Sequence record: NC_049828.1
Direction: 5' to 3' (one strand)
DNA: 48,613 nucleotides
Origin: Escherichia phage haarsle
Shown: positions 1,196 to 47,568 of the stretch, piece after piece
Layout of the letters: the number at the start of each line of letters is the position of its first letter
Numbering within the stretch: position 1 is the first letter of the stretch
Program-made: the position numbers and the translations under genes
The notes under the pieces: model-generated
Database searches by the model: none
The model's input: only the letters and a program-made list of their open reading frames with translations
What the model was told of the DNA's origin: nothing

Positions 1196-1239
1196 ATAGC
1201 ACTTTTTGTTAAAACGCCAGGTGCGAATCCTGGCATAAT
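1196..1239 (+). promoter_or_regulatory. Promoter-like module P1: ATAGCACTTTTTGTTAAAAC, dyad GCCAGGTGCGAATCCTGGC, CATAAT
   Basis: 20-mer at 1196-1215, 22-bp spacer, -10-like 1234-1239, leader box TCATCGAAACGA, then the gene at 1272. Confidence 0.6.
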
Positions 1240-1271
1240 AGCCTCATCGAAACGAGATTGAGGAAACAAAA

Positions 1272-6649: not shown

Positions 6650-8217
6650 TGCTGATTTGGGAAGACTTAACAGCGGCGCAAAAACGCGCCGTTAAGGAAA
6701 TGAGCGAATATTCATTCGAAAAGATGATCCGCATTTGGTTTCAACTTCTCCAGGGACAAAGGTTCTTAGGAAACTGGCATTTCAGTTACCTATGTAGCGA
6801 AGTTGAAAAAATCATCAAAGGAGAGTCACAGAATGTAATTTTCAACATAACGCCAGGCAGTGGTAAAACAGAGATATTCTCGATCCACATGTCACCTTAT
6901 GCGTCATTGAAAAGTAAGAAGGTGCGAAATCTTAATCTTTCGTTTAGTGATGGCCTTGTCCAGCAGAATAGCAACCGAATTAAGGAGATTATTGGTTCTC
7001 CAGAATGGCAGGAGCTATGGCCTGGGAAACTGGCAAAGGCAAGCGCAAAGGATTTGATTGTAACCGATGGCGGCAAGGTTAAGTTACAAGTTAACTCGCG
7101 TTCTATTGGTGGTCAGGTTACTGGTCTGCGTGGTGGCTACATGGACGATGGCTTTACTGGTATGCTGGTTCTTGATGATCCAGACAAGCCGGATGACATG
7201 CTTTCTAAGGTGAAGCGCGAAGCCGGACACATGCGCCTAAAGAACACGGTTCGATCGCGTCGAATGAAGGACACCACGCCAATTGTGATGGTTCAGCAAC
7301 GCCTACACGTCAATGATTCAACATGGTTCATGACAAACGGCGGCATGGGCGGCATCAAGTTTAAGGTGGTTAGTATTCCGGCGCTCGTTACTAAGGAATA
7401 TCGCGAAACGCTTCCTGATTGGTTAAAGCCTGAGTTTGATCGCGATGTTTTGTCCAGTAAGCCAGTGATGATTGATGGAGTTGCTCATTATTCATTCTGG
7501 CCTGCTAAGGAAAGCGCGGAGGAATTGCTTGCGCTTCGAAATGCTGATCCGTACACGTTCGCTAGTCAGTATCAGCAACAGCCTGTTGCGCTTGGCGGTA
7601 ACGTGTTTAAAACAGAGTGGTTTCAGTATTACGGCAGCAGCGAGAAATGCACGCTACCAAAACCGGATCGCTTTGAATATACATTTATCACGGTTGATAC
7701 CGCACAGAAAACAGGGGAGCTTAACGACTACTCCGTGATCTGTTATTGGGGGATGTATAAAGATCGCGTTTACTTCATTGATGGTGTTCGCGGAAAATGG
7801 GAAGCACCAGACCTTGAGACTAATTTTGTTGCGTTCGTTAATCAGTGCTGGAAGCGCAATAAAGAATGCGGAACGTTGCGAAGGATTCATGTTGAAGATA
7901 AATCGTCTGGCACTGGTTTGATTCAGAGTGCAGCGAAAAAAATAATGATCAAGATCAATCCCGTTCAGCGCGATAAAGACAAGGTTACTCGTGCAATGGA
8001 CGCAGCGCCAGTAATGCGCGCCGGACGCGTAGCACTTCCAGAATCGCATCCTATGCTGGCTGAGATACTCGCTGAAGTTGCGGCGTTTACATTAGATGAT
8101 TCGCATCCTCATGATGATATTGTTGATAACATCATTGATGCGGTTAACATTGAAATGAACATGGCAGATGATCCGGTTGGAAGAATGAAAAAATTGGCAG
8201 GTTTGCGGAACAAATAG
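6649..8217 (+). CDS. terminase large subunit (522 aa)
   Basis: Size, position before the portal gene, ATPase-like GSGKT motif. Confidence 0.85.
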   Translation: MLIWEDLTAAQKRAVKEMSEYSFEKMIRIWFQLLQGQRFLGNWHFSYLCSEVEKIIKGESQNVIFNITPGSGKTEIFSIHMSPYASLKSKKVRNLNLSFSDGLVQQNSNRIKEIIGSPEWQELWPGKLAKASAKDLIVTDGGKVKLQVNSRSIGGQVTGLRGGYMDDGFTGMLVLDDPDKPDDMLSKVKREAGHMRLKNTVRSRRMKDTTPIVMVQQRLHVNDSTWFMTNGGMGGIKFKVVSIPALVTKEYRETLPDWLKPEFDRDVLSSKPVMIDGVAHYSFWPAKESAEELLALRNADPYTFASQYQQQPVALGGNVFKTEWFQYYGSSEKCTLPKPDRFEYTFITVDTAQKTGELNDYSVICYWGMYKDRVYFIDGVRGKWEAPDLETNFVAFVNQCWKRNKECGTLRRIHVEDKSSGTGLIQSAAKKIMIKINPVQRDKDKVTRAMDAAPVMRAGRVALPESHPMLAEILAEVAAFTLDDSHPHDDIVDNIIDAVNIEMNMADDPVGRMKKLAGLRNK

Positions 8218-8273
8218 CACGAATCGACAAACCAATATATAATCAAAGGCTGGTAAATCCAGCCTTTTTTATT
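8214..8273 (+). promoter_or_regulatory. Composite junction: partial module (ATAGCACGAAT...TATAAT at 8237-8242) followed by an intrinsic terminator (AGGCTGG taaat CCAGCCT, T6, 8247-8273)
   Basis: Read from the sequence between the large terminase and portal genes. Confidence 0.6.
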
Positions 8274-8285: not shown

Positions 8286-9566
8286 ATGAGTAAATCACGA
8301 ATCGTTAAGGCTGACGGCTACAACGAGATCTTTAAAGGCGAGAATTGCAAATCGCGAGTAGAGCAACCATTCTACATGCAGTCAATGCCATACAAGACGC
8401 TTGCTGACTTTTACGAAAAAGATGGCCTGGCAAAAAGGATTATTGACGTAGTACCAGAGGAAATGGTTTCCCCTGGCTTTACTGTTGACGGCGTGGCAGA
8501 CGAGGCAGCATTCCGTTCTTTGTGGGATGAGAAGCGATTGAATGCAAAAATCATTGATGCGCTTTGCTGGTCGCGTTTGTTTGGCGGATCTGCAATCATT
8601 GCTCTTGTTCAGGATGGGCGTGCGCTCAAATCACCTGTAAAGCCTGGCGCTGTGCTGGAAGATGTTCGCGTTTACGATCGCTATCAGATTCGAGTTGAGG
8701 CGCGCGAAACTAATCCCCGCAAGGTTCGCTATGGTGAGCCAGTGCTTTACACTGTAACGCCAGGCGGAGACTTGCCGGAATACCAGGTACACTACACGCG
8801 AGTTTGCATTATCGACGGTGAGCGGATACCTAACGCAAAACGACGCAGCAATGATGGATGGGGTGAGTCAGTTCTTAACAAGCGACTTATTGAGGCTATT
8901 GTTGATTATAACTATTGTGAAACATTAGCGACGCAATTATTGCGAAGAAAACAACAGGCAGTATGGAAAGCTAAAGGTCTTGCGGACTTGTGTGATGATG
9001 AGGAAGGTGTTAGCGCGGCACGCCTGAGACTTGCGCAGGTTGACGACGAGGGCGGAGTAGGCAAGGCCATTGGTATTGATGCTGAGGATGAGGAATATGA
9101 TGTTCTTAACTCTGACATTAGCGGCGTTGATTCTTTTCTTGAAAAGAAAATGGATCGCATAGTTTCCCTTTCAGGTATTCATGAAATCATCCTGAAAAAT
9201 AAAAACGTTGGCGGCGTTAGCGCAAGCCAAAACACGGCGCTTGAAACATTCTATAAACTTATTGAGCGAAAACGCGTTGAGGATTACAAGCCCATCCTTG
9301 AATTTCTATTGCCGTTCATCATTAGTGAGCAGGAGTGGAGCATTGAGTTTTCACCTTTGAGCGTGCCTAGCGATAAAGATCAGGCTGAAATTCTGAATAA
9401 GAATATCGACTCAATCAGCAAGGCTATTGATGGTCAGTTCCTTGATGTTGAAGAAGCGCGAGACACGTTGCGAGCAATCGCCCCAAGCGTTAAACTAAAG
9501 GACACTAATAAAATCAAGCTGCCGGAGCCATCGGAGCCGGAGCCAGGCACACAGGGGAATGAGTAA
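8286..9566 (+). CDS. portal protein (426 aa)
   Basis: Size and position after the large terminase; RBS GGAGGAAAG. Confidence 0.75.
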   Translation: MSKSRIVKADGYNEIFKGENCKSRVEQPFYMQSMPYKTLADFYEKDGLAKRIIDVVPEEMVSPGFTVDGVADEAAFRSLWDEKRLNAKIIDALCWSRLFGGSAIIALVQDGRALKSPVKPGAVLEDVRVYDRYQIRVEARETNPRKVRYGEPVLYTVTPGGDLPEYQVHYTRVCIIDGERIPNAKRRSNDGWGESVLNKRLIEAIVDYNYCETLATQLLRRKQQAVWKAKGLADLCDDEEGVSAARLRLAQVDDEGGVGKAIGIDAEDEEYDVLNSDISGVDSFLEKKMDRIVSLSGIHEIILKNKNVGGVSASQNTALETFYKLIERKRVEDYKPILEFLLPFIISEQEWSIEFSPLSVPSDKDQAEILNKNIDSISKAIDGQFLDVEEARDTLRAIAPSVKLKDTNKIKLPEPSEPEPGTQGNE

Positions 9567-11458: not shown

Positions 11459-11971
11459 ATGGCTACAATTGGAGCAAGCTACTTTGCTGTAATGTCTCGT
11501 GCGTTACCTGGTCAGGTTTCTGACACTTCAGCTTATAATATTGATGGCGCTTGTGTTCTTGAGAATGCGGCAGGCAATCAGAATCAGTCTGTTTTTGTTG
11601 GTGTTGCGGTCCAGCATGGCGGCGTTGACGCTATGGGCAATAAGCTAATTAAGCCGATGGCGGCAAGCGGCAAGGCTTACGGCGTTGCAATTCGATCTCA
11701 CTTTCAGACAACTTCGTCTGACGGTCGAATGATTTATGAATCTGGCGGCGGAATCAACGTAATGACTGAAGGGCGTGTTTGGATGTTGGCTAAAGACGCT
11801 TCCGCGCCAGCTTTCGGCACTGCAATCAAACTGTCTGATGATGGTCAGGTCGATACCACGTCTGGCACTATCGAAACAAACTGGATCGCGACTGGTGATT
11901 TCACCAAGTTTCAAGACTTGAAGCTGGTAGAGGTTCAGGTGCAAAAAGTTCCGGCAGTTTCAGCAGGTTAA
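11459..11971 (+). CDS. capsid decoration-like structural protein (170 aa)
   Basis: Position in the head module; paralogous to the next gene (shared G-x-VW-x-L...APxxG block). Confidence 0.5.
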   Translation: MATIGASYFAVMSRALPGQVSDTSAYNIDGACVLENAAGNQNQSVFVGVAVQHGGVDAMGNKLIKPMAASGKAYGVAIRSHFQTTSSDGRMIYESGGGINVMTEGRVWMLAKDASAPAFGTAIKLSDDGQVDTTSGTIETNWIATGDFTKFQDLKLVEVQVQKVPAVSAG

Positions 11972-11978
11972 TAAATAT

Positions 11979-12003
11979 GGCGCTCACTGAGCGCCTTTTT
12001 TAT
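11979..12003 (+). terminator. Intrinsic terminator (GGCGCTC act GAGCGCC, T-run)
   Basis: Perfect 7-bp GC stem plus TTTTTT. Confidence 0.8.
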
Positions 12004-12016
12004 ATTTGGAGTTCTC

Positions 12017-12451
12017 ATGAGTGATTATTCAGTCATTGTTGGCGCTGAGTCGCCAGGGTGCATGGTCGATTCTTCAATAATGGTGATTAACGGATCTTTC
12101 GTGTGCGGAGATGAATTTATTGCGCCAGGTAAGATTGTGCGACTATCACATATAACAAATGGATACAAAATAGCAAGTGTTAATGGGGATCTCGTTATTG
12201 GCGTGGCAGTAAGGCCGCCGGACTCGTGCATATATGAGGAGGGCGATCCAGTTAATGTGGTTAGTCGAGGTAATGTTTGGTGCTTAACTTCTGAGAGCGA
12301 AGCGCCAGAATATGGAGATAAAGTATTTGTAACGCAAGATGGAGATGTGGCATACAGTGAAGGCGACTTGCTGATTGGTTGGATCTTTACTGGCGAACAT
12401 GTAAAGGTTGATAATGATTCATATATTGTCGGGGTAAGCATTGACCCATAA
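12017..12451 (+). CDS. paralogous decoration-like protein (144 aa)
   Basis: Sequence similarity to the 11459-11971 product, seen by eye. Confidence 0.45.
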   Translation: MSDYSVIVGAESPGCMVDSSIMVINGSFVCGDEFIAPGKIVRLSHITNGYKIASVNGDLVIGVAVRPPDSCIYEEGDPVNVVSRGNVWCLTSESEAPEYGDKVFVTQDGDVAYSEGDLLIGWIFTGEHVKVDNDSYIVGVSIDP

Positions 12452-12468
12452 CACAAAATTATGTTGCA

Positions 12469-12488
12469 CGTTTAACAAAAAATGCTAT
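12469..12488 (-). promoter_or_regulatory. Reverse-oriented module copy M1 (ATAGCATTTTTTGTTAAACG on the minus strand) inside the rightward head operon
   Basis: 20-mer present without the canonical 22-bp spacing; may instead contribute TTGCAC-16-TATCAT plus-strand promoter for the capsid gene. Confidence 0.45.
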
Positions 12489-12534
12489 CATTGGTCCGTT
12501 ACATACTAACGACCTTTATATATGGAGGAAGAAA

Positions 12535-13509
12535 ATGGAAAAAGAAAAATTTGATCAGCTAGATGCGGACATTGTTTCTAGCTATCTGGCTACTCGCGGC
12601 GTTAAAGGTGATGCGTCCGATATGGGTATTTGGGCCGCTCAAGAACTGCATAAGATTCGCTCTAATGCTTACGAGAAAGAATATCCGGCAGGTTCAGCGC
12701 TTCGTGTATTCCCTGTAACTAATGAGCTTTCTGATACTGATAAGACTTTTGAATATCAGATGTTTGACAAAGTTGGTTACGCAAAAATTATCGCTGATTA
12801 CACCGACAACCTGCCGACCGTTGACGCGCTGATGTCTAGCGAATTCGGTAAAGTATTCCGCCTGGGTAACGCGTTCTTGATCTCCATTGACGAAATCAAG
12901 GCTGGTCAGCGCACTGGTAAGAGCCTTTCCACTCGCAAGGCAAACGCAGCGCAAAACGCTCATGATCAGGAAGTTAACCGCCTGGTGTTTAAGGGTTCAA
13001 AGCCGCATAAGATTCTTTCGGTGTTCGAACATCCTAACCTGACAAAGATCGTGTCTTCTGGCTGGTTAAGTAATGATGAAAACACTAAGTTCCCACAGGC
13101 TGCATCTGATGAACTGGAAAAGGCTATTGAAACAATTCAGACCATCACCAATGGTGAGCACCGCGCAACCAATATCTTGATTCCGCCGTCTATGCGCAAG
13201 GTTCTTTCCGTTCGAATGGAAAACACCACTGAAAGTTATCTGGAATACTTCCAGAAACAAAACAGCGGAATCACCATCGACTCAATCGCAGAGCTTGAGG
13301 ATATTGATGGCGCTGGAACGAAAGGTTGCCTGGTATATGAGAAAGACCCGATGAACATGTCGATCGAAATTCCAGAAGCATTTAACATGCTTCCGGCGCA
13401 ACCAAAAGATCTGCATTTCAAAGTTCCGTGCACTTCAAAATGTACTGGCCTGACGATTTACCGTCCGTTTACGCTAGTACTTATTACTGGCTTGAAAAAA
13501 TCAGGTTAA
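12535..13509 (+). CDS. major capsid protein (324 aa)
   Basis: Size and position; strong RBS GGAGGAAG; followed by a strong terminator. Confidence 0.65.
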   Translation: MEKEKFDQLDADIVSSYLATRGVKGDASDMGIWAAQELHKIRSNAYEKEYPAGSALRVFPVTNELSDTDKTFEYQMFDKVGYAKIIADYTDNLPTVDALMSSEFGKVFRLGNAFLISIDEIKAGQRTGKSLSTRKANAAQNAHDQEVNRLVFKGSKPHKILSVFEHPNLTKIVSSGWLSNDENTKFPQAASDELEKAIETIQTITNGEHRATNILIPPSMRKVLSVRMENTTESYLEYFQKQNSGITIDSIAELEDIDGAGTKGCLVYEKDPMNMSIEIPEAFNMLPAQPKDLHFKVPCTSKCTGLTIYRPFTLVLITGLKKSG

Positions 13510-13522
13510 TCGTATAACATTG

Positions 13523-13553
13523 GGGAATCCTTAACTGGATTCCCTTTTTTATT
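13523..13553 (+). terminator. Intrinsic terminator (GGGAATCC ttaact GGATTCCC, T6)
   Basis: 8-bp stem plus T-run after the capsid gene. Confidence 0.8.
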
Positions 13554-13565
13554 GGAGGTTATGAA

Positions 13566-13838
13566 ATGGCTAAAGAAAAAACTGTAACGCTAAAGGTTTC
13601 CGGCGTGTGCCTTATCATTGTTGATGGTGAGCATTATCATCCAGGCAAAGAGTTTGACGTAGAAGAATCAAAATTGAAAACAAGCGCGTTTGAATATCTA
13701 ATTGCAAAAGGCGATCTGGAGGTTAAAGACAACTCCGCATTGAACGAAGAAATCAAACAGAGCGCAGCAAGCAAACGTAAAAAAGACCCACGAGAGGGCA
13801 AGAGCAAAGCCGAACTTGAAGACGGCGGCATCTATTAA
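13566..13838 (+). CDS. hypothetical structural protein (90 aa)
   Basis: ORF with RBS GGAGG. Confidence 0.45.
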   Translation: MAKEKTVTLKVSGVCLIIVDGEHYHPGKEFDVEESKLKTSAFEYLIAKGDLEVKDNSALNEEIKQSAASKRKKDPREGKSKAELEDGGIY

Positions 13839-13844
13839 TAAAGA

Positions 13845-13868
13845 GGGCGCTATAAGCGCCCTTTGTCA
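13845..13868 (+). terminator. Weak terminator-like hairpin (GGGCGC tataa GCGCCC, TTTGT)
   Basis: Stem-loop with a short T-tract. Confidence 0.4.
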
Positions 13869-13885
13869 TATCTGGAGGAAACACA

Positions 13886-14302
13886 ATGGTTGATGAATTT
13901 TTCACTGACGCAGAAATCACGCAGCAAATCGTGAAATTAGCTCCACCGATGAAGCAGATTGATCCAGATTTAATGGTGGCATGGATTGAGCTTGCAAAGG
14001 AATTTGTTTGCAAGAAGCGGTTTAAAGAATCATATCCTAAAGCGGTCGCTCTTTATACGTTGCACCTTATGACGCTTGACGGAGCGATGAAACAGGAAGG
14101 GGAAAGCGTAGAGAGTTACTCACGGCGCGTGGCGTCATTTTCCCTGACTGGTGAATTTAGTCAGACATTTGATCGTGTGTCAGGCGATTCAAGCGGAAAA
14201 GAGATCAGGCAAACTCCGTGGGGTAAAATGTATGAAACGTTAAATCGCAAAAAAGGCGGCGGATTTGGTCTTGTTACTGGATTTAGGAGACGTTGCAAAT
14301 GA
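13886..14302 (+). CDS. head-tail connector/adaptor protein (138 aa)
   Basis: Position between the head and tail modules. Confidence 0.4.
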
Positions 14303-14670
14303 ACTATAACGAGATCGCAAGAATGGCAACCGAAGGAATTAACTTCTTTAGTGATGGCAACGGTGAGTTTAAGTGCATAACGCAGCGTGGAAGCGTTGAA
14401 ATCATCGGAGGCGAAGAAGTAGAAAAGCCAGAGATCAGTGTAATGATTAAAGGTTTAATTCGATCCCCAAAATTACGCGAGGTTGACGGAGAGACAATAC
14501 GAGTAACCGATAAGTTGGGAGTTTTTAACAATAAAGTTGAAATTAAGAACGGGTATCATATTGATGTTGATGGTGAATTATATGTTGTAGTTGAAGCAAG
14601 ACCAATCAGACAAACCAATGTCACTGTTGCTTATCGGCCTATTTTGAGAAGGATTTCTGTACATGGCTAA
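14293..14670 (+). CDS. head-tail joining (head closure) protein (125 aa)
   Basis: Position; overlapping coupled genes. Confidence 0.45.
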
Positions 14671-15106
14671 AAACTACACGATAAGAGAATTTCACGGCAA
14701 CATTGATGCGTGGATAAACGCCGTTGATAGTGGACTAAAAGATTGCGTGGAGTTATTCGCCGAAAAAGTACACACAGATTTGGTTAAGCGTTCTCCGGTA
14801 GATACTGGTCGTTACCGTGGAAACTGGCAGGTAACAGCAAATAAGCCGCCATTGTATGCGCTTAACCAGTACGATAAGCACGGCGACAAAACGATCGCGG
14901 AAGGTAAGCGAGCTATATACGCAATATTGAGAGGTGGCGGAGCGGTAAGGGCTATTTATTTTTCAAATATGCTTATTTACGCTAACGCGCTTGAATACGG
15001 TCATTCAAAACAAGCGCCAGCGGGTGTGCTTGGTATTGTTGCCGTGAAGTTGCGTTCATATATGGCTGAAGCAATAAAAGAGTCGAGGGCTAAAAATGCA
15101 CTATGA
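14663..15106 (+). CDS. tail completion/neck protein, HK97 gp10-like (147 aa)
   Basis: DTGRYRGNW motif resembles the HK97 gp10 family signature. Confidence 0.55.
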   Translation: MAKNYTIREFHGNIDAWINAVDSGLKDCVELFAEKVHTDLVKRSPVDTGRYRGNWQVTANKPPLYALNQYDKHGDKTIAEGKRAIYAILRGGGAVRAIYFSNMLIYANALEYGHSKQAPAGVLGIVAVKLRSYMAEAIKESRAKNAL

Positions 15107-15494
15107 ATTAATGCTATCGGCGCGCAAGGCGCTGGCGACTGAATACGAAAACAGATTCATGATCTCTTATGAAAACGTAGAGTTTACGCCACCTGGTGAC
15201 GGTTCGCCGTGGTTGAAGTTTGACTATACCGAAGTTGACACAGAATACTTGTCATTGGATCGCAAATGTGTTTCCTATATCGGAATGATTCAGGTTGGCA
15301 TTGTGTTTCCGCCAGGTTACGGAACTGACAGGCCGCGCGTTCTAGCTAAAGAGATTGCGCAATTCTTTTACGATGGTAAAATGCTGGAGCATGGTTATAT
15401 ATATGAGGGTGCAAGAGTTCACAAGCCGCTCAAGAGTGAAAGCGGTTGGATTCTCCCAATAAGGTTTTATGTTCGAATTGAAACAAAGGAGTAA
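15096..15494 (+). CDS. tail terminator-like protein (132 aa)
   Basis: Position immediately before the major tail gene. Confidence 0.45.
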   Translation: MHYELMLSARKALATEYENRFMISYENVEFTPPGDGSPWLKFDYTEVDTEYLSLDRKCVSYIGMIQVGIVFPPGYGTDRPRVLAKEIAQFFYDGKMLEHGYIYEGARVHKPLKSESGWILPIRFYVRIETKE

Positions 15495-15499
15495 AAATT

Positions 15500-16162
15500 A
15501 TGCATTTACCAAATGGATCGCAAATTTTCGTTGAGAGCAATCGCGGCAGCGAAATCCAAGCAACGGCAGTATCAAACGCTAAAGATCCTGTATTCACCGT
15601 TGCATCTGGTGGCACTGCGTACAAGAAAGGCGATTATGTAATCATCACTGCGTCCTCCTGGGGCAAGCTGATTGATCGTGTTATGCGTGTAAAGGCTAAC
15701 GGTGAAGAAACAAGCGTGACTCTTGAGGGTGTTGATACTACCGATCAGAACGTGTTCCCGACTGGAGGCACTGCATCTTTTGCCAAGATTGATGCATGGA
15801 CTGAGATCCCTTGCGTTCAGGATTTGTCGCAGGACGGCGGAGAGCAGCAATATTACACTTATCAGTGTTTGGCGGACGACCAGGAGCAGCAGTTACCTAC
15901 CTATAAGAGCGCGGTTTCTCTTACCTACACTTTTGCGCACGAATACGATAACGCGATCTATCCGCTATTGCGTTCAGCAGATGAATCCGGTGAAGTAACA
16001 GCACTTCGCATGTATGTACCGAAAGCGAAAGAGATGCGTTGCTGGGCTGGTGTCCTTTCGTTTAACGAAATCCCACAGACCACCGTTAACGAAATGGAAA
16101 CTGTTTCCCTGTCTGTATCCCTGAAAGGTCGATTCACCTTCCTACCTTCTCAAGTAGCATAA
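15500..16162 (+). CDS. major tail protein (220 aa)
   Basis: Position upstream of the G/GT chaperones; followed by a strong terminator as usual for abundant structural genes. Confidence 0.7.
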   Translation: MHLPNGSQIFVESNRGSEIQATAVSNAKDPVFTVASGGTAYKKGDYVIITASSWGKLIDRVMRVKANGEETSVTLEGVDTTDQNVFPTGGTASFAKIDAWTEIPCVQDLSQDGGEQQYYTYQCLADDQEQQLPTYKSAVSLTYTFAHEYDNAIYPLLRSADESGEVTALRMYVPKAKEMRCWAGVLSFNEIPQTTVNEMETVSLSVSLKGRFTFLPSQVA

Positions 16163-16167
16163 TCACA

Positions 16168-16192
16168 AGGGGCGTTGCGCCCCTTTTTTTGT
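16168..16192 (+). terminator. Intrinsic terminator (AGGGGCG ttg CGCCCC, T7)
   Basis: GC stem plus TTTTTTT. Confidence 0.85.
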
Positions 16193-16204
16193 TACTGTAC
16201 AATC

Positions 16205-16248
16205 ATGCTACACGATTCATAATCAATTCTTTTAACAAAAAGTGCTAT
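16205..16248 (-). promoter_or_regulatory. Reverse-oriented module M2 (antisense to the tail operon), -10-like TAGCAT
   Basis: 20-mer at 16229-16248 in minus orientation with a 22-bp spacer; would transcribe antisense into the major tail gene. Confidence 0.45.
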
Positions 16249-16261
16249 CAAGGAGAAAGAA

Positions 16262-16579
16262 ATGTCAAAAATGAAATTGACGATTGGGCCGCTTCCTGAT
16301 TTTAAATTACCAGTGAAATTTGCAATGCCTAACGGAGAAGATCAAACAATTATCTTCACAGTTCGCCACCGCAAAACAAGTGAGATTCACGAGCGCTACA
16401 CGTCAGATACTCCAATGAGCGATGTTGAAATGATCACCTTCCTTGCTTCTGGTTGGAATCTTGATGATGAATTTAACGAAGAAAATATTAAACAGCTTCT
16501 TGATTACTACCCAGCAACAGCAATCGGATTAACTAGCGCATACATGAAAGCGCTTGCGGGGCAGCGAGTAAAAAACTAA
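16262..16579 (+). CDS. tail assembly chaperone (G-like, 105 aa)
   Basis: Position between the major tail and tape measure genes; slippery site at its 3' end. Confidence 0.75.
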   Translation: MSKMKLTIGPLPDFKLPVKFAMPNGEDQTIIFTVRHRKTSEIHERYTSDTPMSDVEMITFLASGWNLDDEFNEENIKQLLDYYPATAIGLTSAYMKALAGQRVKN

Positions 16580-16890
16580 AAAGGGCGGTTTACCTGTTTT
16601 ATCAGAAACCGCCGACAGATGCAGAGCTTGAGGCTGTTGGCCTTACAAGGGCAGACTATGAAGGAGAAGATCCGCCAGAGGTTATATTTGATGAAAGCAT
16701 GATGCAATCATGGGATATATTTTGCGCAATGCAAACGCAATGGAGATGTTCAGGCGGTGGCGCTTACGGATTTGATTATAATGTCTTGCCTATGCTTTTT
16801 GAGATTTACAAGGTTGAGGATCGCGAGATGGCGCTAAACGACTTGCGAATCATGGAGCAAAAAGCACTTGAAATGATGCATTCAAAATAA
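16262..16890 (+). CDS. tail assembly chaperone GT-like fusion produced by -1 programmed frameshift
   Basis: Heptamer A_AAA_AAC at 16570-16576; the -1 frame is open to 16890; downstream stem-loop. Confidence 0.65.
16570..16613 (+). other. -1 frameshift signal: slippery heptamer AAAAAAC plus stimulatory hairpin (stem 16584-16591 / 16606-16613)
   Basis: Canonical X_XXY_YYZ heptamer with a 7-nt spacer to an 8-bp stem. Confidence 0.7.
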
Positions 16891-16913
16891 GCGCCTACGG
16901 GCGCTTTTTTATT
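16890..16913 (+). terminator. Terminator-like hairpin (GCGCC tac GGGCGC, T6) directly upstream of the tape measure gene
   Basis: Stem-loop plus T-run; likely partial (attenuating) termination. Confidence 0.7.
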
Positions 16914-16929
16914 ACCTGGAGGATTAATA

Positions 16930-19602
16930 ATGTCAGAACAATACGCAGGCTTGACGCTTGGGGTTGACGTTTCTCAACTCAACAATGCTGTAAAGTCTTT
17001 GCAGCAATTCAAGAAGGCAAACGACGACGCAAAGGGAAGCGTTGAGAGTTTTGTTGATTCAGAGGTTGTTGCAAGACAAAGAGCCAAACAACTTGCTGAG
17101 GAATTGGCAAAGCAGAAGCAAGAATTTAAAGCAATTCAGTCGGCAATAGATCCGACAGCAAGCAAAATGGATAAGTTGCGCCAGGCTGCGACACAGCTTG
17201 ATGCGCTTTGGAAAAAAGGAATTGTTCCGGATGACACATTCTTTGAATTAGGATCAATTCTTGAGACGCAGCAAAATAAACTGATCGCAACTAAAAAGGC
17301 GCTAACTGAAGAAGGCCGCGCGGCTCTTGAGGAAGCAAAAAATAAGGCAAGAGCAGAGGCTGAGGCAAGAAAGTTTATTGCGGCATTGCAGGCGCAAGCT
17401 GACGCAGCGGAAAAAACAAAGTCAGAGCTTGTCGAAATGAGAGCCGCACAACTTGGAGTTAGTGCAGAGGCCGCGCCATTTATTGCAAAAATGAAGGAGC
17501 AGGAAAAACAAGCCTCAAAACTTGGCGTTTCTATGGGGCAGTACAAGCAAGCAATGGCGCAATTGCCAATGCAGATCACTGACGTTGTTACTTCTCTTGC
17601 TTCAGGAATGCCAGTATGGATGATCGCAATCCAGCAGGGCGGTCAAATCAAGGACTCATTCGGCGGTGTTGCTAATACGTTTAAAGCGCTAATGACATTT
17701 GTCACGCCTTTAAGTGTAGGGATGACGGCGCTGACTGGTGCTCTTGGTTATGCTGCATATAATGCATACAAAGCAAATGCACAACTGAAGGAGATCACAA
17801 AAACCGTTCAGGAGGCAACTGGTCTTTCAGGTGAGTTTGCAGAGCGGATCGCAACTGGAATCCAGGCGCTATCTGACAAGACAGGTGAGAGCGCCGATAA
17901 TCTGGCAAAGGCATACATAAGCACTAAGGATGGAGCAACCGAGGCCATACAAAAACTCGTCGATGTTGGGTTTACCTATGACGAAGCAAAGGTAAAGGTA
18001 AACGAATACAAGAATGCATCAAGTTTTGTAAGTCTCAACAATGAGATTGCTGATCACAAAAACAAGGTTCTTGAGCTTGGCGATTCGTGGTATGAAGTCT
18101 TAAAAGCGAAGAATGATTATGCTTCACCGTCCGGCGGGCTGTTGGGGAAAGAGCTTGGTTATGTAAATCCTATGTTGCAATTTGCGAAGAACACCTATGA
18201 GGATATAGGAAAGATCGTAAAAGATGCGAATAAGGATATGGCGGAACGAGCAGCACGCATCGACAGAGAAAATCTTTCCTTAAACAGAGTTCGAGCGGCG
18301 CAAGAGGCTTTAAACAAAGCCATAGAGGATCAGAAAAATGTAGCAAGGACAGCAGACGAAGAGTTGAAAAAACGAGCAGCCGAGAACGTTGAGTTCAGGC
18401 GAAAAGAGCTTGAAGAGGCGAAGAAGGCACAGCAGCAAAAGGAGAAAGTTGGCGGAGTTGTAAAAGCACCAACAGAGCAGCTTGATAAGGAGCTATATGT
18501 TCTCAAGGCGCAACTTGAAGCGCTGAAAGATCACCGAACTGTAAATGATGTTATTTCACGCCAGAGGCAATCTTTGTGGAGTATTGAAAAGCAGATCCAG
18601 ATCCTTGAGGAAGCGCAAAGCAAACGTAAGCTGACAAAAGCGGAACAGGCGTTACTAAACGAGCAAAAAGCAGTTATTGCTATGGCAAAAGAAAAGGCCG
18701 AGATAGGCGATCAGATTGTTTTGCAACAGAGAAAGAACAAGCAATACCAGGAAGGGCTAAAGTTCATTCAGCAAACTTCAGATGCCATTGATGCTATGAA
18801 CTTGCGACAGTCCGGAGCTACAGATCTGCAAATCCAGCGAGAGCTTGAGTTGAAGAAGTTGCGAACTGATTATGTTGCTGGCGGCGGTAGTATCGACGAT
18901 GAAATTTATCAGCAGATGGAAGCAAAGCTGAAGGAGTATTACGCAACTGAGGATCAACTTAGAAATAACTGGATTGCAGGAGCAAAAAACGCATGGGAGG
19001 TTTACGGACAAGACGCAATGGATATGTACGGAAACGTGCAAGATATTGCAAGCGAGGCGCTCAACGGTCTAACCAACCAAATGGCTACATTCCTTGCAAC
19101 AGGAAAGGCAAACTTTAAGAGCTTCGCAACGTCAATCATCCAAATGATTATCCAGATGATCACAAAGATGGTTATCTTTAATGCCATATCTGGTGCGATT
19201 GGCGGTGACACTTGGACGATTGGAAGCCTTCTTAAAAATGTTGGGTTTGCAACTGGTGGATACACTGGCGACGGCGGGAAGTATGAGCCAGCAGGTGTTG
19301 TTCATAAAGGCGAGTTTGTCATGACGAAGGAGGCCACGAAGCGGATCGGAGTTGGAAACCTTTACAAAATGATGCGCGGTTATGCAAATGGCGGCGTTGT
19401 TGGCGGAACTTCATACACTGGCGGCGGCGTTTCATCTGGAGCCACGAATCTTAATATTGGCGGGATCAGCGTTGATATTAACAACGGAAGCGATCCGAAA
19501 GGGTTGGAGACTGGCGTAAAAATGATTTTCACTGATATGATTAAGCGTTCCTGTACGCAGGGTGGTGAAGTTTACGAATTTGTTATGTCTAAGCGGGGGT
19601 GA
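16930..19602 (+). CDS. tail tape measure protein (890 aa)
   Basis: Length, coiled-coil-rich sequence, position after G/GT. Confidence 0.85.
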
Positions 19603-28346: not shown

Positions 28347-28352
28347 ACAGCA

Positions 28353-28388
28353 CAAATAGCTAAACAAATGAAAAATGTGGTGTTATAA
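28353..28388 (+). promoter_or_regulatory. Extended -10 promoter candidate (TGT-TATAAT at 28380-28388)
   Basis: TGnTATAAT read from the sequence upstream of the gene at 28428. Confidence 0.45.
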
Positions 28389-29452: not shown

Positions 29453-29893
29453 ATGCATATTATTACTGGTGAGATCCGAAAAGAGCCGCGAGTAAAGCAA
29501 ATGCCTAACGGCAGCACGCTTTATGTAGTTGAGCTTTCAGAGCGATACAAAGATAAAGATGGAAACTGGCAATATACAAACTACAGTTTCTTTTTTAATG
29601 CTAAAACAGAAGGTCTTAATGGTTGGTATGCTGAGGCGTTCCAGGTTGGAAAGGTTATTTCTGTATCTTGCGACACGCTTCGCATAGAAACGCGTGAATA
29701 TAACGGAAAGATGTATTCAAGTTTAATGCCTGGTGGATTCGCAAATCTTATATTCAGCCAGCGCGGAGAAGGCCAGCCGCAACAGCAACAACAAGGAGGA
29801 TGGGGCCAACCACAGCAACAGAATCAACAGCAACAACAACCAAAACAAAGCAATCAGCCTCCTATGGACTTTGACGACGACATTCCTTTCTGA
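29453..29893 (+). CDS. ssb: single-stranded DNA-binding protein (146 aa)
   Basis: OB-fold-like N-terminal region, Gln/Gly-rich linker and acidic C-terminal tail DFDDDIPF. Confidence 0.85.
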   Translation: MHIITGEIRKEPRVKQMPNGSTLYVVELSERYKDKDGNWQYTNYSFFFNAKTEGLNGWYAEAFQVGKVISVSCDTLRIETREYNGKMYSSLMPGGFANLIFSQRGEGQPQQQQQGGWGQPQQQNQQQQQPKQSNQPPMDFDDDIPF

Positions 29894-29897
29894 TCAA

Positions 29898-29922
29898 CAA
29901 AGGGGCATTACGCCCCTTTTTC
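29898..29922. terminator. Bidirectional terminator (AGGGGC atta GCCCCT, T5)
   Basis: Hairpin between convergent SSB and the leftward block. Confidence 0.7.
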
Positions 29923-30165
29923 ACTTTCAGCCACTCCAAGCACGGCAATAACCTTGACAGCAATTCGCTTTGCAAGTTCAGTTTGATTCGCGTTCAGCTT
30001 TCCGGTGGTCATTATTGACAACATTCCGCTCATACTTCCAAGCCCGTTAAAATCTGACATTGCCGATTTCATGATTGATATTGGTGAATGACCTTCATCA
30101 GCTATTGTGTGCGCTCTCTCTGACAGGTCTTTAACTACCTGATCTATTCCTTCACTTTTCGTCAT
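29908..30165 (-). CDS. hypothetical protein (85 aa)
   Basis: ORF with RBS AAGGAAAAG. Confidence 0.5.
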   Translation of the reverse strand: MTKSEGIDQVVKDLSERAHTIADEGHSPISIMKSAMSDFNGLGSMSGMLSIMTTGKLNANQTELAKRIAVKVIAVLGVAESEKGA

Positions 30166-30643
30166 TTACTTTTCCTTCAGGAGTTGATTGCTGTTCTGGC
30201 ATTACAGGCCACGGGCTAATTGATTCCCTTTCTGCTACTGGTTTTTCAGGTTCAATGCCTAAAAACTTTCCTACAAACTCACCAACAAAATTTGAACTAT
30301 CGCTTACATAAACATGCATTCTGTCAAGATCTGCAACTGTAACGCTATTTGGTGCGATCATAATTCGCTGTTGGTGAAAACCGATATACATCACATTTGC
30401 CGGACGCTCAATAGTCCCCATATTTGGCGCAATTACGCCCATTATCCAACAATAATGAATGTTGCCATCAAGCGGTTCACATCCAGCGTTAAGCCAGTTT
30501 ACTTTCTGGTGAGGAAACGCCATTGATGAATCAGTAGCATCACGCCGCAACGACCATTTAACGCCGCCAATCTCAATGATTTGTTTTGGCCTCATTCCGT
30601 TGAATTGAGTCACGCCAGCGCCATTTTGATTAATGTTTTGCAT
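30152..30643 (-). CDS. hypothetical protein (163 aa)
   Basis: ORF with RBS GGTGA. Confidence 0.5.
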   Translation of the reverse strand: MQNINQNGAGVTQFNGMRPKQIIEIGGVKWSLRRDATDSSMAFPHQKVNWLNAGCEPLDGNIHYCWIMGVIAPNMGTIERPANVMYIGFHQQRIMIAPNSVTVADLDRMHVYVSDSSNFVGEFVGKFLGIEPEKPVAERESISPWPVMPEQQSTPEGKVNDEK

Positions 30644-34060: not shown

Positions 34061-34993
34061 TTAGAGAAGTGATTCAGGTTTGTAAACCTTCCTCTCTATC
34101 CCTTTCCTGTAATTATCATTAATCGGCATCATAATTTCAAGTCCTCTTTCCTCGGCAGCAATGATCGCGTCACGGTCTGTACTCTTACAGACAACTCTCA
34201 TTCTTCTGTTTCCCTTATACCTGTAAGCCACAATCTCAATGTTAGTTGCATCAAAGCAGGCCCAAACCTCTTGACCAGTTGCAAGGTGAATATGTTGCGC
34301 ATCAATCCAGTCAACGCAAAGATAGATCGTCTTATCTGTGCTTCCTGTTCTCACAACAGACCCGCGCGTGTAGTCCTTTGCGAGAAAAGACTGTTTACCC
34401 TCTTCATCAATGAAAAGCACATTGCACATTTCATCATCAATATCATCGGAATGCACCAGGTAACATGGTAACGCGTGAATGTATCGACCATCTTTAACGC
34501 CGCATTCATAATAACCATCTTCAGGAGGATATATCCCTTCATAGGAGCTTAACGGCGTGCGATCAAATTTTAGTGTTTTTGACATAACGCGCTCGCAGCA
34601 TTCATGGCTTGCCTGTTTCCCAAACGAATAACCAGAATCACGAGACACTCGCTTATTTGCCTTAATTCTATAGTCCTGCGGAACTTTTCCAAGAAAGCGA
34701 CCCAAAATATTGATCACTTCGCTGTAAGGTTCTCCGGTTAGCTTCATGATCCAACCGATTCCAGTATCGTTTCCGCACACGTTGCAGATAGCGCCGCCGT
34801 CGCCTTTTTTATCTCCAAGTTTATCCGTCCATCTAAAGCGATCCTTTCCGCCGCAGTGGGGGCAAGATTGATGCTTGCCGTTAAAAACTTCATTTGGAAG
34901 ACCGCAAATACTTTGTAGCGCCTCACGCCATAATCCCTGCATATATGGGAGAACATCTTCCTTTTGATAAACCATAAAGTTTTCGTTGTTCAT
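34061..34993 (-). CDS. DNA primase (zinc-ribbon CPHCGGKDRF plus Toprim-like region, 310 aa)
   Basis: Primase-type zinc-binding motif; start at MNNENF with RBS GAGG. Confidence 0.7.
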   Translation of the reverse strand: MNNENFMVYQKEDVLPYMQGLWREALQSICGLPNEVFNGKHQSCPHCGGKDRFRWTDKLGDKKGDGGAICNVCGNDTGIGWIMKLTGEPYSEVINILGRFLGKVPQDYRIKANKRVSRDSGYSFGKQASHECCERVMSKTLKFDRTPLSSYEGIYPPEDGYYECGVKDGRYIHALPCYLVHSDDIDDEMCNVLFIDEEGKQSFLAKDYTRGSVVRTGSTDKTIYLCVDWIDAQHIHLATGQEVWACFDATNIEIVAYRYKGNRRMRVVCKSTDRDAIIAAEERGLEIMMPINDNYRKGIERKVYKPESLL

Positions 34994-35005
34994 ATGCACC
35001 TCAAA

Positions 35006-35046
35006 CAAAAAAGCCTGACAGATGATAACATCATGCCAGGCATTGT
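35006..35046 (-). terminator. Terminator-like hairpin (GCCTG..CAGGC with flanking A/T runs)
   Basis: Inverted repeat with a long loop. Confidence 0.4.
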
Positions 35047-35048
35047 TT

Positions 35049-35522
35049 TTAGCAATTAGTGCTTTCAGGTTTATACAGGAATCCGCCAGGCTCATAATCT
35101 GACATTCTTACCACTCGCAACATTTCACGCTTATCACATCTCTTTGTGAGCGGTTTGCCATTGGAATCAAATCGCAGGTCTGGGCGGCAGAATGATGCGC
35201 GATAGCCTTGACATCCATATTTTTTGTAATCGTTATGCACCTTTTGAGCGCCAGCGGCTGAAATCATACCGCGAACACGCCACTGATTTACAGTTTGCTG
35301 GCTAACGTTAAGACGTTTTGCCATTGCTGACACACTTCCGTAATACTCAATAAGGATGTCAAGACGTGCTTTTAGTCCGGCGCGCACTTCATCTTTTAGT
35401 ACATAATATCCTGTAGGGCGCTTGCGTTTCTTCTTATCCTTGCCTCGTCTGGTTCCGTTATTGCCATTAATTGTGCGCTTGTCAATCTTGCCAGTTGATA
35501 CTGCGATTCGCTGTTCTTTCAT
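35049..35522 (-). CDS. helix-turn-helix DNA-binding protein (157 aa)
   Basis: HTH-like segment AMAKRLNVSQQTVNQW and basic N-terminus; RBS GGAG. Confidence 0.55.
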   Translation of the reverse strand: MKEQRIAVSTGKIDKRTINGNNGTRRGKDKKKRKRPTGYYVLKDEVRAGLKARLDILIEYYGSVSAMAKRLNVSQQTVNQWRVRGMISAAGAQKVHNDYKKYGCQGYRASFCRPDLRFDSNGKPLTKRCDKREMLRVVRMSDYEPGGFLYKPESTNC

Positions 35523-35534: not shown

Positions 35535-35578
35535 AATAGCATTTTTTGTTAAACGATGATTTAATGATTGTGTATTAT
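35535..35578 (+). promoter_or_regulatory. Promoter-like module P8 (ATAGCATTTTTTGTTAAACG, TATTAT) in the divergent region
   Basis: 20-mer at 35535-35554 with 21-22 bp spacer to a -10-like hexamer; upstream of the helicase gene. Confidence 0.5.
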
Positions 35579-35611
35579 ACACGCCAAATGGCATTACTCA
35601 AAGGTTTTAGA

Positions 35612-38063: not shown

Positions 38064-38103
38064 CACTTTTTGTTAAAACAGGCGCGAAGAATTGCGCCAT
38101 AAT
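38060..38103 (+). promoter_or_regulatory. Promoter-like module P6 (dyad GGCGCGAAGAATTGCGCC, CATAAT)
   Basis: 20-mer at 38060-38079 overlapping the TAG stop at 38061-38063; 22-bp spacer. Confidence 0.6.
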
Positions 38104-39083: not shown

Positions 39084-39123
39084 CACTTTTTGTTAAAACG
39101 CCCGGCCTTGTGTCGGGCATAAT
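39080..39123 (+). promoter_or_regulatory. Promoter-like module P7 (dyad GCCCGGCCTTGTGTCGGGC, CATAAT)
   Basis: 20-mer at 39080-39099; 22-bp spacer; leader box TCATCAAAACGA. Confidence 0.6.
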
Positions 39124-39155
39124 TACTTCATCAAAACGAACAAGAGGAAAACAAA

Positions 39156-39665: not shown

Positions 39666-40781
39666 ATGAAGCAAATCAAAATCACAGATGAACAATTTAT
39701 CAATGAGCGCAAGCAGGGAAAGACATATAAGCAGATCGCTAATGAGTATGGCATGAACGTTCGCAGCATTGAGCGCCGCGCGGCACGATTAGCAAAGCAA
39801 GGTAAAGTTACAACCATCGGATCACCTGGTTTTGGTGTTACTGGAGAATCAAAGCTAATTGATCAAGATGGCAATGTGGTTATGACATGGATTAAGACAA
39901 GCAAGGACCGCGAACAGTTAGAAGCATTAATGCAGGCCGCTATGGATGCATTTAGCGAAGAAGTTCCGCGACTTGATCCGCAACCAGAATCACAAAAGGA
40001 TTATAGCGAGACGTTATCACTGTATCCGATCTTTGATATGCACTTGGGCGCAATGGCGCATAAGCATGAATGCGGAGAGAATTGGGATACAGCAACAGCA
40101 GAGCGCGTAATGAATAATTTCATTGATTATTCCATCCAGTGCGCGCCGGATAGTGAAAAAGCTGTCTTGCTGATTGGTGGTGATATGCTTCACAGCGACG
40201 GACTGGAGGCGGTAACACCTGCAAGCGGTCACGTATTGGATCAAGATAGTCGATACGCAAAACTTGTTTACGTTGCCATCCGGTCAGTGCGTCGGGCAAT
40301 AGCAAAGCTGTTATCAAAACACAAAAACGTCGAGATTCAGATAATTGAAGGCAACCACGACCAAAGCGGCATGATCTGGTTGCGCGCAGCAATGGCGGCA
40401 GCATATGAGAATGAGCCGCGAGTGCATGTTGATGTGTCTCCGCGAGTAGTTCATCACACACAATATGGCAAAACATTCCTGGCATACCATCATGGGCACA
40501 CTATCCGCAAGCCTGAAACATTGCTCATGATGTGCGCGGCAGACTGGCGCGAAGACTTCGGAAATTCAAAAATGATGTATGCTCACGTAGGGCACTGGCA
40601 TCATCAGACAGTAACTGAAACAAGCCTGGGCATTGTTGAAGTGCATAGCACTATGGCGGCAAAAGATGCATATGCGGCGCGCGGTGGATGGCGTTCCCGT
40701 CGCCGTGCGGCTGTTATTGTTTACGATAAAGAATACGGAGAAGTAGGGCGATTTATGCATTATCCAGAAATGGCTGATTGA
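39666..40781 (+). CDS. HTH domain - metallophosphoesterase fusion protein (371 aa)
   Basis: N-terminal HTH-like TYKQIANEYGMNVRSIERR; phosphoesterase-like motifs GGDMLHSDG, GNHD, HHGH; RBS AAGGAG. Confidence 0.5.
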   Translation: MKQIKITDEQFINERKQGKTYKQIANEYGMNVRSIERRAARLAKQGKVTTIGSPGFGVTGESKLIDQDGNVVMTWIKTSKDREQLEALMQAAMDAFSEEVPRLDPQPESQKDYSETLSLYPIFDMHLGAMAHKHECGENWDTATAERVMNNFIDYSIQCAPDSEKAVLLIGGDMLHSDGLEAVTPASGHVLDQDSRYAKLVYVAIRSVRRAIAKLLSKHKNVEIQIIEGNHDQSGMIWLRAAMAAAYENEPRVHVDVSPRVVHHTQYGKTFLAYHHGHTIRKPETLLMMCAADWREDFGNSKMMYAHVGHWHHQTVTETSLGIVEVHSTMAAKDAYAARGGWRSRRRAAVIVYDKEYGEVGRFMHYPEMAD

Positions 40782-42267: not shown

Positions 42268-42300
42268 TTTTAAAATCCTCATATTCGTTTCGATGAAACA

Positions 42301-42344
42301 AATATACCCGATACGAGATCGGGTGTTTTAACAAAAAGTGCTAT
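42301..42344 (-). promoter_or_regulatory. Promoter-like module M4 (dyad ACCCGATCTCGTATCGGGT containing GATC, TATATT)
   Basis: Minus-strand 20-mer at 42325-42344 overlapping the TAG stop; 22-bp spacer. Confidence 0.6.
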
Positions 42345-45143: not shown

Positions 45144-45187
45144 ATTATGCCAGGCTTTTACACCTGGCTTTTAACAAAAAGTGCTAT
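45144..45187 (-). promoter_or_regulatory. Promoter-like module M6 (dyad GCCAGGTGTAAAAGCCTGGC, CATAAT)
   Basis: 20-mer at 45168-45187 overlapping the TAG stop of the cytosine methyltransferase gene; dyad nearly identical to that of P1 and holds two CCWGG sites. Confidence 0.6.
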
Positions 45188-47031: not shown

Positions 47032-47062
47032 TTTTAAATCCTCGTTCGTTGTCGATGCGCTT

Positions 47063-47535: not shown

Positions 47536-47568
47536 TTTCAAATCCTCGCATTCGTTGTCGATGTGTGT

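Follow-up and report, generated by a model that had tools for sequence, protein, structure and literature searches.

The closest published description of the element studied here is found in the 2024 re-annotation of phage TLS, in which a 21-nucleotide (nt) direct repeat, aaATAGCACnnnTTGnTAAAA, was reported in 21 copies and noted also in T1, Rtp and Rogue1 (PMC11447400). The repeats were described as lying "in the direction of transcription", approximately 76 nt upstream of start codons; stoperators, enhancer sites or UP elements were put forward as candidate functions, and the function was left open (PMC11447400). In the present work we examined two copies of this repeat, M1 and M2, in the genome of Escherichia phage haarsle (sequence record NC_049828.1; the whole stretch analysed, 48,613 nt in length, is referred to below as the window). 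M1 lies upstream of the major capsid gene and M2 between the terminator of the major tail gene and the tail-chaperone gene, and both point against the rightward structural genes that surround them.

A second described system is the marbox, the asymmetric 15-20 bp site of the monomeric MarA-family activators (MarA, SoxS and Rob; RamA in Klebsiella), defined by the Grainger laboratory as 5'-gcannwwntgnnaaa-3' (PMC12052159). Class II marboxes are forward and centred between -36 and -55, class I marboxes are reversed and lie between -56 and -85, and core-overlapping marboxes are found between -35 and +25 (PMC12052159). At micF the marbox was placed at about -41 in a cryo-electron microscopy study of RamA; at the Escherichia coli pbpG promoter, a marbox in the spacer allows MarA, SoxS and Rob to repress; and at flgBP2 (PMC12781870), a marbox at -16 to -30 allows MarA to activate a sigma-28 promoter by distorting base pairing. 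As detailed below, the phage repeat matches the marbox, and on balance we consider it probable, by a modest measure, that it is one, that M1 is such a site inside the core of a conserved sigma-70 promoter of the capsid gene, and that M2 heads an antisense promoter facing the tail-chaperone promoter.

The repeat family and its match to the marbox

A search of the window for the 20-mer of the repeat family returned 15 matches at three mismatches or fewer, compared to 0.05 expected, and the published marbox pattern, GCANNWWNTGNNAAA, gave 17 exact matches compared to 1.7 expected, a number reached by no shuffle. All 17 exact matches are copies of the phage repeat, and all of them, M1 and M2 included, agree with the marbox at every specified position. 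An older consensus, which we take to be AYnGCACnnWnnRYYAAAY, was matched 20 times at one mismatch or fewer, with 1.3 matches expected. The TLS authors independently listed 18 repeats, of which 16 fit the 15-mer exactly, and the two classes of the repeat, the T-class GCACTTTTTGTTAAA and the G-class GCACGAATTGCTAAA, differ solely at positions which are n or w in the consensus.

Fifteen of the 17 copies (13 from the 20-mer search and two diverged ones) point with the downstream gene and read AATAGCACTTTTTGTTAAAA; only M1 and M2 oppose the surrounding genes. The gene-oriented copies are followed by a -10 hexamer (CATAAT, TATAAT, TATATT, TACATT and similar) at a distance of 20 nt from the 15-mer (N20) in 13 cases and of 19 nt (N19) in two. 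No -35 hexamer was found in these gene-oriented modules, as expected for class II promoters. The copies are forward, centred at about -42, and spaced as at micF, which in E. coli MG1655 carries GCACTGAATGTCAAA, N20 and TAGAAT, with 7 nt to the annotated 5' end. The full set of class II features (forward orientation, centre between -36 and -55, ordinary -10) was found in all 15 gene-oriented copies and, on the minus strand, in M2. A similar picture was obtained for KP36, a Klebsiella phage of the genus Webervirus, with 14 forward exact copies, of which 13 have a clear -10-like hexamer at N20 and one has ATTATA.

To follow the two reversed copies across relatives, 61 loci around relatives of the major tail protein were collected from IMG/VR. 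M1 was found reversed and in an unchanged position in every locus with a tail-protein identity of at least ~67% that spans the capsid-gene start, and M2 was present in most of the same loci; position and orientation of both are kept down to ~67-70% major-tail-protein identity. T1 carries both reversed copies, at 15069 and 18833, and M1 is also retained in Webervirus, at ~55% identity. Besides M1 and M2, no further copy of the repeat was found in the 10-kb structural regions of the relatives with tail-protein identity of at least ~67%.

M1 (tgATAGCATTTTTTGTTAAAc) and M2 (tgATAGCACTTTTTGTTAAAa) both agree with the 21-nt consensus of the T1-like repeat and depart from the published rule of direction and ~76-nt distance: they oppose the flanking genes, and end 46 nt and 13 nt, respectively, before the next ATG. 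Other identities for the repeat were considered. An UP element was rejected, as the invariant GCAC and TG are not A/T tracts, and none of the consensus sequences for sigma-54, sigma-32, sigma-28, sigma-E, IHF, CRP, FNR or the T4 MotA box fitted.

The predicted capsid and tail-chaperone promoters

The 15-mer core of M1 (12471-12485, within the 19-mer ATAGCATTTTTTGTTAAAC; the plus strand reads cgTTTAACAAAAAATGCTATCA) is embedded in the elements of a plus-strand promoter (Table 1). When 43 unique sequences were aligned on the capsid start, the layout of A-rich tract, TTGnnn, N16 and TAnnnT was seen in 41. Six variants of the -35 hexamer occur (TTGCAC, TTGACG, TTGACC, TTGCCT, TTGCTG and TTGATT), always 16 nt from the -10 in these 41, and the -10 reads TATCAT, TATTAT, TATTCT or TATATT, with the T, A and T of hexamer positions 1, 2 and 6 kept and a TG at -15/-14. 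In the A-rich tract ATAACAcAAAAAc is kept across lineages, and the tract may function as an UP element. Of the 41 aligned sequences, 33 have an exact reversed marbox in the spacer, 6 deviate from it at one position and 2 at two; the Webervirus spacer has changed to a G-class marbox, which still conforms to the consensus. The GenBank record of KP36 annotates the equivalent capsid promoter at 15358..15385. These data point to M1 as a marbox inside the core of a conserved, putative sigma-70 promoter, a placement of the pbpG type in which the site overlaps the spacer and the core elements, with transcription probably starting near 12498. A consensus promoter scan listed neither this promoter nor the plus-strand promoter at M2, because their -35 hexamers match merely three of six positions, and the start sites given for both are predictions.

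On the minus strand M1 lacks the features of a class II site. The hexamer at N20 is TATGGG in the window and TATGCG, TATAGC, TATTGG, TATACA or TATGGT in relatives; since the T at -7 is not kept at this spacing in any lineage, M1 does not appear to be an antisense promoter. A class I arrangement, in which M1 and M2 would serve a downstream promoter, was rejected, as the starts would fall inside the capsid (12534-12563) and chaperone (16294-16323) genes.

A hairpin followed by a T-run, situated downstream of M1 between the -10 and the ribosome-binding site (RBS), persists with differing stem sequences in most lineages, and its equivalent in TLS is listed as terminator T35. In the window it is weak (-6.6 kcal/mol, z 0.34) and was not listed by the terminator scan. 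As the predicted start lies inside its 5' arm, transcripts reading through from upstream may terminate here, while RNA derived from the promoter itself would escape. The same order of promoter and terminator-like structure was observed in the primase leader (34990-35065, minus strand; 35900-35995 in T1), where a marbox module with a -10 of TATCAT is followed by a strong hairpin with a T-run and an RBS; this may mean control by attenuation or antitermination. A further observation concerns Webervirus: L049 and L060 have two mismatches to the 15-mer, and in KP36, L049 and L060 GTGCTAT is replaced by GTGATAT, with the -35, the spacing and the -10 whole. Such genomes are natural variants that can be compared for capsid-gene timing.

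M2 (ATAGCACTTTTTGTTAAAA, with its 15-mer core at 16231-16245; the plus strand reads ctTTTAACAAAAAGTGCTATCA) abuts the chaperone RBS, AAGGAG (16250-16255; ATG at 16262). Every M2-bearing sequence has a minus-strand hexamer whose distance from the marbox is exactly N20. Nine variants were encountered (TAGCAT, TATCAT, TATCTT, TAGGAT, TAGAGT, TAGATT, TATATT, TACGAT and TAAGAT, TATCAT being that of the closest relatives), and all are of the form T-A-n-n-n-T, with positions 1, 2 and 6 invariant and positions 3-5 free, as is characteristic of a -10 element. In T1 (40311) and KP36 (47538), gene-oriented modules likewise have TAGCAT at N20. On the plus strand, the loop and 3' arm of the tail terminator yield a -35-like TTGCGC (16175-16180) 17 nt before TACAAT; the TTG in the terminator loop and the spacing of 16-17 nt are kept from T1 to KP36. 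The -10 of this chaperone promoter is TAAAAT, TAGAAT or TACAAT in all M2-bearing sequences, and TAATAT or CATAAT in the lineages that lack M2. A different promoter suggested by the promoter scan, TGTACA-16-CATAAT (16196-16223), was rejected, as it is not conserved in relatives and TTGCGC-17-TACAAT is conserved instead.

Taken together, M2 is best read as a putative class II-type antisense promoter, face to face with that of the tail-chaperone operon. With only 1 nt between the two -10 elements, two open complexes could not coexist. Antisense RNA starting near 16198 would pass through the hairpin of the terminator and extend into the last part of the tail gene, where the scan revealed no clear minus-strand terminator. 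The distance from M2 to the RBS varies between 1 and 13 nt and that to the -10 elements is fixed; the former argues against a role at the RNA level.

A comparable arrangement was observed between the pir and helicase genes (35536-35620 in the window, 36431-36530 in T1), where two promoters stand face to face with overlapping -10 elements (TATAAT vs TATTAT). The marbox of the pir leader (35536-35553) lies just upstream of the pir RBS, is reversed with respect to pir and also drives the helicase gene in the opposite direction, making it a gene-bearing twin of the M2 layout; in T1, a promoter reading through the pir-leader site is repressible.

The earlier note, which was made from the window sequence without database searches, had located M1 and M2 to within 1-2 nt of the positions given here and had recognized that both oppose the rightward structural genes. 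The 22-bp spacing that it reported between M2 and TAGCAT, counted from TTGTTA, is the N20 described above, and its view of M2 as an antisense-pointing module agrees well with the invariant spacing and with the hexamer positions kept over nine variants. It was also correct in that M1 lacks an element at the canonical spacing. The plus-strand TTGCAC-16-TATCAT that it saw at M1 holds up as a predicted capsid promoter, to which the TGn of an extended -10 can be added, and it is not one that M1 merely "happens to create": its layout in 41 of 43 sequences and the annotated KP36 equivalent argue for a conserved design. Its interpretation as a whole is thus supported in part, having missed the match to the host marbox and the single nucleotide that separates the antisense -10 of M2 from that of the plus strand.

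By its sequence, the window is a T1-like siphophage (Drexlerviridae, Tempevirinae, Hanrivervirus); the 5 kb around M1 and M2 are 96-98% identical to Shigella phage SFP17 and Escherichia phages aalborv, herni, grams and G29-2. According to the annotation of relatives, the order of genes is terminase, portal, protease, an unknown gene (12017-12451), major capsid protein (12535-13509), head-tail genes, major tail protein (15500-16162), tail chaperone (16262-16579) and tape measure, with early and replication genes on both arms of the window.

Table 1. Positions in the window of the elements at M1 and M2, the gene-oriented modules and the Pir homolog
Feature	Position	Strand	Remarks
A-rich tract aCACAAAAttatg, possible UP-like element	12452..12463	+	abuts stop codon of upstream gene (12449-12451)
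-35 TTGCAC, major-capsid promoter	12464..12469	+	TTG invariant
M1, reversed marbox-type repeat	12470..12488	-	fills 16-nt spacer and first 3 nt of -10, about -28 to -10
Extended -10 TGcTATCAT (hexamer 12486-12491; T12483, G12484)	12483..12491	+	predicted start ~12498
Hairpin GGTCCGTT-acatact-AACGACC, then TTTATATAT	12493..12523	+	between -10 and RBS GGAGG (12524-12528); capsid ATG 12535
Intrinsic terminator of major tail gene, GGGGCG-TTG-CGCCCC + T7	16167..16192	+	terminator scan; annotated in phage G29-2
-10 TACAAT, tail-chaperone/tape-measure promoter	16198..16203	+	predicted start ~16210
Antisense -10-like TAGCAT	16205..16210	-	1 nt from plus-strand -10; predicted antisense start ~16198
Antisense-module spacer, 20 nt	16211..16230	-	length invariant, sequence free
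M2, reversed marbox-type repeat	16230..16248	-	~-42 of antisense start, ~+30 of plus-strand start
Gene-oriented module (marbox-type repeat, N20, CATAAT)	1196..1245	+	layout of copies
Further modules of same build	1659, 2643, 3986, 35536, 38060, 39080	+	
Gene-oriented module (marbox-type repeat 42327-42344, N20, TATATT)	42295..42344	-	layout of copies
Further modules of same build	26840, 35048, 44494, 45170, 47089, 47595, 48469	-	
Homolog of T1 ST23/Pir, 60% identity	35049..35522	-	sole recognisable phage transcription regulator

Several further features of the modules were observed. Many contain GC-rich hairpins of variable sequence between marbox and -10 or across the -10 (1214-1233, 38078-38097, 39098-39117, 42307-42326 and 45150-45169; in T1, 39994-40013 and 41974-41993), with words such as GGGGTA...TACCCC and AAGGCC...GGCCTT; in the T1 record, several such hairpins carry the annotation of a rho-independent terminator. 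Promoter and terminator are apparently fused in one compact unit, and only about a third of the hairpins fold clearly better than shuffles. A block reading CATCGAAACGA, CATCGACAACGA or CATCAAAACGA lies 5-6 nt past the -10 of many modules, around the predicted early start (1245-1256, 39129-39140, 42284-42294, 47046-47057, 47552-47563 and 48425-48436); it is found also in T1 and KP36, is absent from M1 and M2, and could be an initial transcribed sequence or a leader element. Two further diverged copies of the repeat were noted on the plus strand. One, ATAGCACGAATCGACAAAC (8214-8232), at the terminase/portal junction, is without class II spacing and has a TATAAT just ~8 nt off; the other, ACAGCACAAATAGCTAAAC (28347-28365), located after recE, has TATAAT at N19. 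T1 carries a forward copy at 8362-8379, 16 nt before the start codon of the small terminase, with no equivalent exact copy in the window. It is too near the gene for a class II role, and may be a leader or roadblock site.

Proposed mechanism and alternative explanations

To our knowledge, T1-like phages encode neither an RNA polymerase nor a sigma factor, and no late activator of phage origin is known for them. The gene-oriented modules of the early and middle genes would be activator-assisted sigma-70 promoters of class II marbox architecture, and M1 and M2 would be the same site reversed, placed on two late promoters that follow internal terminators. A protein bound at M1 would most likely hold the capsid promoter down for as long as the activator is free, as at pbpG; repression is proposed because the bound protein would sit where RNA polymerase must bind. 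At M2, polymerase recruited by the activator would occlude the tail-chaperone/tape-measure promoter, run into transcription continuing out of the tail gene, and produce a short antisense RNA that spans the terminator of that gene. Going one step further, host MarA, SoxS and Rob might drive nearly all early and middle promoters while keeping the capsid and chaperone promoters off. Replication, by multiplying the ~20 sites of each genome, would titrate the activator out and release the late promoters, making up a replication-coupled timer. We regard this last proposal as possible and put it forward tentatively; if true, bile salts, salicylate and oxidative stress would all influence the development of the phage.

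Several observations weigh against the marbox interpretation or the roles assigned to the two sites. The identification is one of sequence and geometry, and the phage copies vary much less than the marboxes of the host, AATAGCAC and TAAAA being nearly invariant, which could mean a more specific binder. M2 is absent from 22 unique sequences, lost together with its spacer as one block with the plus-strand promoter retained, and the M1 marbox has decayed in KP36 and in two other Webervirus sequences (L049 and L060) with the promoter intact; these losses imply that neither site is indispensable. The opposed -10 hexamers at M2 form a 13-bp near-palindrome, TAGnAT-N-ATnCTA, that could itself be a dimer-binding site. 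The precedent of activation at flgBP2 makes the sign of regulation at M1 uncertain. Unstressed cells contain little MarA or SoxS, and their Rob is mostly inactive, yet T1-like phages thrive in ordinary broth. MarA, SoxS and Rob are also mutually redundant. A Keio screen with the T1-like phage LL5, the bearing of which is qualified by this redundancy, reported no rob, marA or soxS.

We found nothing in the literature that ties marboxes, MarA, SoxS or Rob to T1-like phages, nor any start-site study of Drexlerviridae, and the host-factor screens were uninformative. T1 promoters with these modules were reported to be active in reporters in uninfected E. coli. A MarA or SoxS encoded by the phage itself was rejected: in a tblastn search with MarA and SoxS sequences the best hit, to a DUF7174 protein, had an E value of 0.56, and a Pfam scan of 30 small open reading frames (ORFs), with the larger and structural ORFs outside the scan, revealed no AraC-type domain. 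As a separate observation, a 65-amino-acid ORF at 46834-47031 (minus strand) matches Pfam PF25180, 'Phage antiviral trigger protein Gp54' (E 1e-37), and small ORFs beside it match DUF7421, DUF7174, DUF7180 and DUF7299.

Among the alternative explanations, the one that survives best, though we judge it unlikely, is that the repeat is the operator of a phage regulator such as the Pir/ST23 homolog and that its resemblance to the marbox is coincidental. A dimer would bind the partial dyad TAGCA-N5-TG(C/T)TA, activating from about -42 and repressing where its site falls within a core promoter, as at M1, or within a leader, as at M2 and pir. The 5-bp inverted repeat in the core is indeed perfect in G-class and TGCTA copies, but most copies in the window read TGTTA, which breaks the dyad, and the flanks are asymmetric and conserved and the orientation to the -10 strict, unlike a symmetric operator. 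Pir is found family-wide and has a helix-turn-helix of the Cro/YdaS type (at about or below the Pfam threshold), and in T1 it activates Pdam, where the copy is gene-oriented, and represses its own promoter Ppir, where the copy lies in the leader; however, T1 Porf65 was reported to be Pir-independent in spite of a perfect gene-oriented copy, and Phol and PrecE respond to Pir without any copy. The near-identity of the copies suggests a specific binder, yet an operator of Pir would leave the exact match to the marbox consensus and the micF spacing unexplained. The other T1 regulator, Orf65, was rejected as the binder, having no homolog in the window. In T1, the cor-recE intergenic region (29850-30378) was seen to contain many TGTAAC/GTTACA-type words and long TATATA runs, and TTTAC(A/G) words occur in all four Pir-responsive T1 reporter fragments; this region could be a Pir site or an origin.

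It is also conceivable, but improbable in our view, that the reversed copies bind no protein at all, M1 being an inherited spacer with an extended -10, M2 a dead module left by an old rearrangement, and the plus-strand promoters alone of importance. These promoters do outlast decay of the motif (KP36, L049 and L060) or its absence (the 22 unique sequences without M2), and the TG of the motif doubles as the extended -10. Spacers normally vary, yet the 33 of 41 M1 spacers that are exact marboxes span major-capsid-protein identities of ~54-100%, and the switch of class respects the consensus; at M2 the 20-nt spacing is invariant and the TAnnnT hexamer persists despite drift of the spacer sequence, unlike in a relic. 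The suggestion in the earlier note that the copies are relic modules is likewise contradicted by their family-wide conservation in place and orientation. We give still less credence to a second suggestion made there, that both copies are antisense promoters whose RNAs tune the levels of capsid and tail proteins: M2 would fit such a role, but at M1 no lineage offers a usable -10 at N20 (TATGGG, TATACA and TATAGC are examples), and M1 is not supported as a source of antisense RNA. A third, that the copies are orientation-independent protein-binding sites, comes near to our best reading, except that the site is asymmetric and its position relative to the core promoter decisive. Finally, the idea that the copies act in plus-strand RNA, where CUUUUAACAA would resemble the rrn/lambda boxA UGCUCUUUAACAA and load Nus factors for terminator read-through, is hardly credible, as the similarity to the boxA consensus is partial and, although M2 does lie in the leader of an operon with several internal terminators, the predicted start at M1 is downstream of the motif so that RNA from that promoter would not contain it, the spacing of M2 is fixed to the -10 and variable to the RBS, no structure signal was found in the leader and no RNA-family match in Rfam over 11800-17000, and the bases held in common with the DNA-level promoter motif (18/18 for M2 and 17/18 for M1) would go unexplained.

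If the marbox interpretation were to be confirmed, it would tie the development of these phages to the regulators of antibiotic tolerance in enteric bacteria, and salicylate, bile salts, oxidants or clinical mar mutations could alter the growth of T1-like phages, which are common laboratory contaminants and candidates for phage therapy. The reversed copies would show how one host protein may turn on early genes and gate late ones. Should it prove wrong, M1 would still identify a conserved promoter of the capsid gene whose spacer resembles an operator, and M2 a conserved antisense promoter directed against that of the tail operon. The transcription programme of T1 and its relatives is an old open question, and the repeat was left unexplained by the re-annotation of TLS.

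Comparison with known systems

The gene-oriented modules share with the class II marbox promoters micF, lpxC P2, lpxL P1 and rfaY P1 the consensus, the forward orientation and a centre at -41/-42 overlapping the -35. They differ from their E. coli counterparts in belonging to a virulent phage, in the 15-25 near-identical copies per genome, and in the GC hairpin that many have in the spacer; M2 differs further in having no downstream gene. For M1, the nearest likeness is the pbpG promoter, a sigma-70 promoter in which a marbox likewise separates the -35 from the -10; the TG of the extended -10 and the first 3 nt of the hexamer additionally come from M1, and repression through M1 would be by analogy. 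The flgBP2 marbox likewise lies within a core promoter beside the -10, the 15-mer of M1 spanning about -27 to -13, but there the sigma factor is another one, and M1 already has a strong -10.

Face-to-face promoter interference is familiar from pR/pL of coliphage 186. This pair and the pir/helicase promoters resemble M2 in that opposed promoters would be subject to mutual exclusion or collision; at M2 the -10 elements are merely 1 nt apart and the antisense partner has no gene. The analogy drawn by the TLS authors, with the stoperators of mycobacteriophage L5, is apt insofar as these are asymmetric repeats in transcribed regions and M2, read on the plus strand, lies at about +21 to +39 of the chaperone transcript, but stoperators require a repressor encoded by the phage and stand at no set distance from a -10, whereas the window repeat is locked at N20 in 15/17 copies. 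DR1-DR18 of TLS belong to the same sequence family as the window repeat, and M1 is the ortholog of DR7, which the supplementary table of that study gives as 'neg' at 15044..15024, directly before the plus-strand terminator T35 (PMC11447400). That paper does not discuss the reversal of DR7, lists no M2 for TLS and makes no mention of the marbox match. The repeat family and the tabulated reversed ortholog of M1 are therefore already known, while the marbox identity, the capsid promoter with the site embedded in its spacer, and the face-to-face design at M2 appear to be new.

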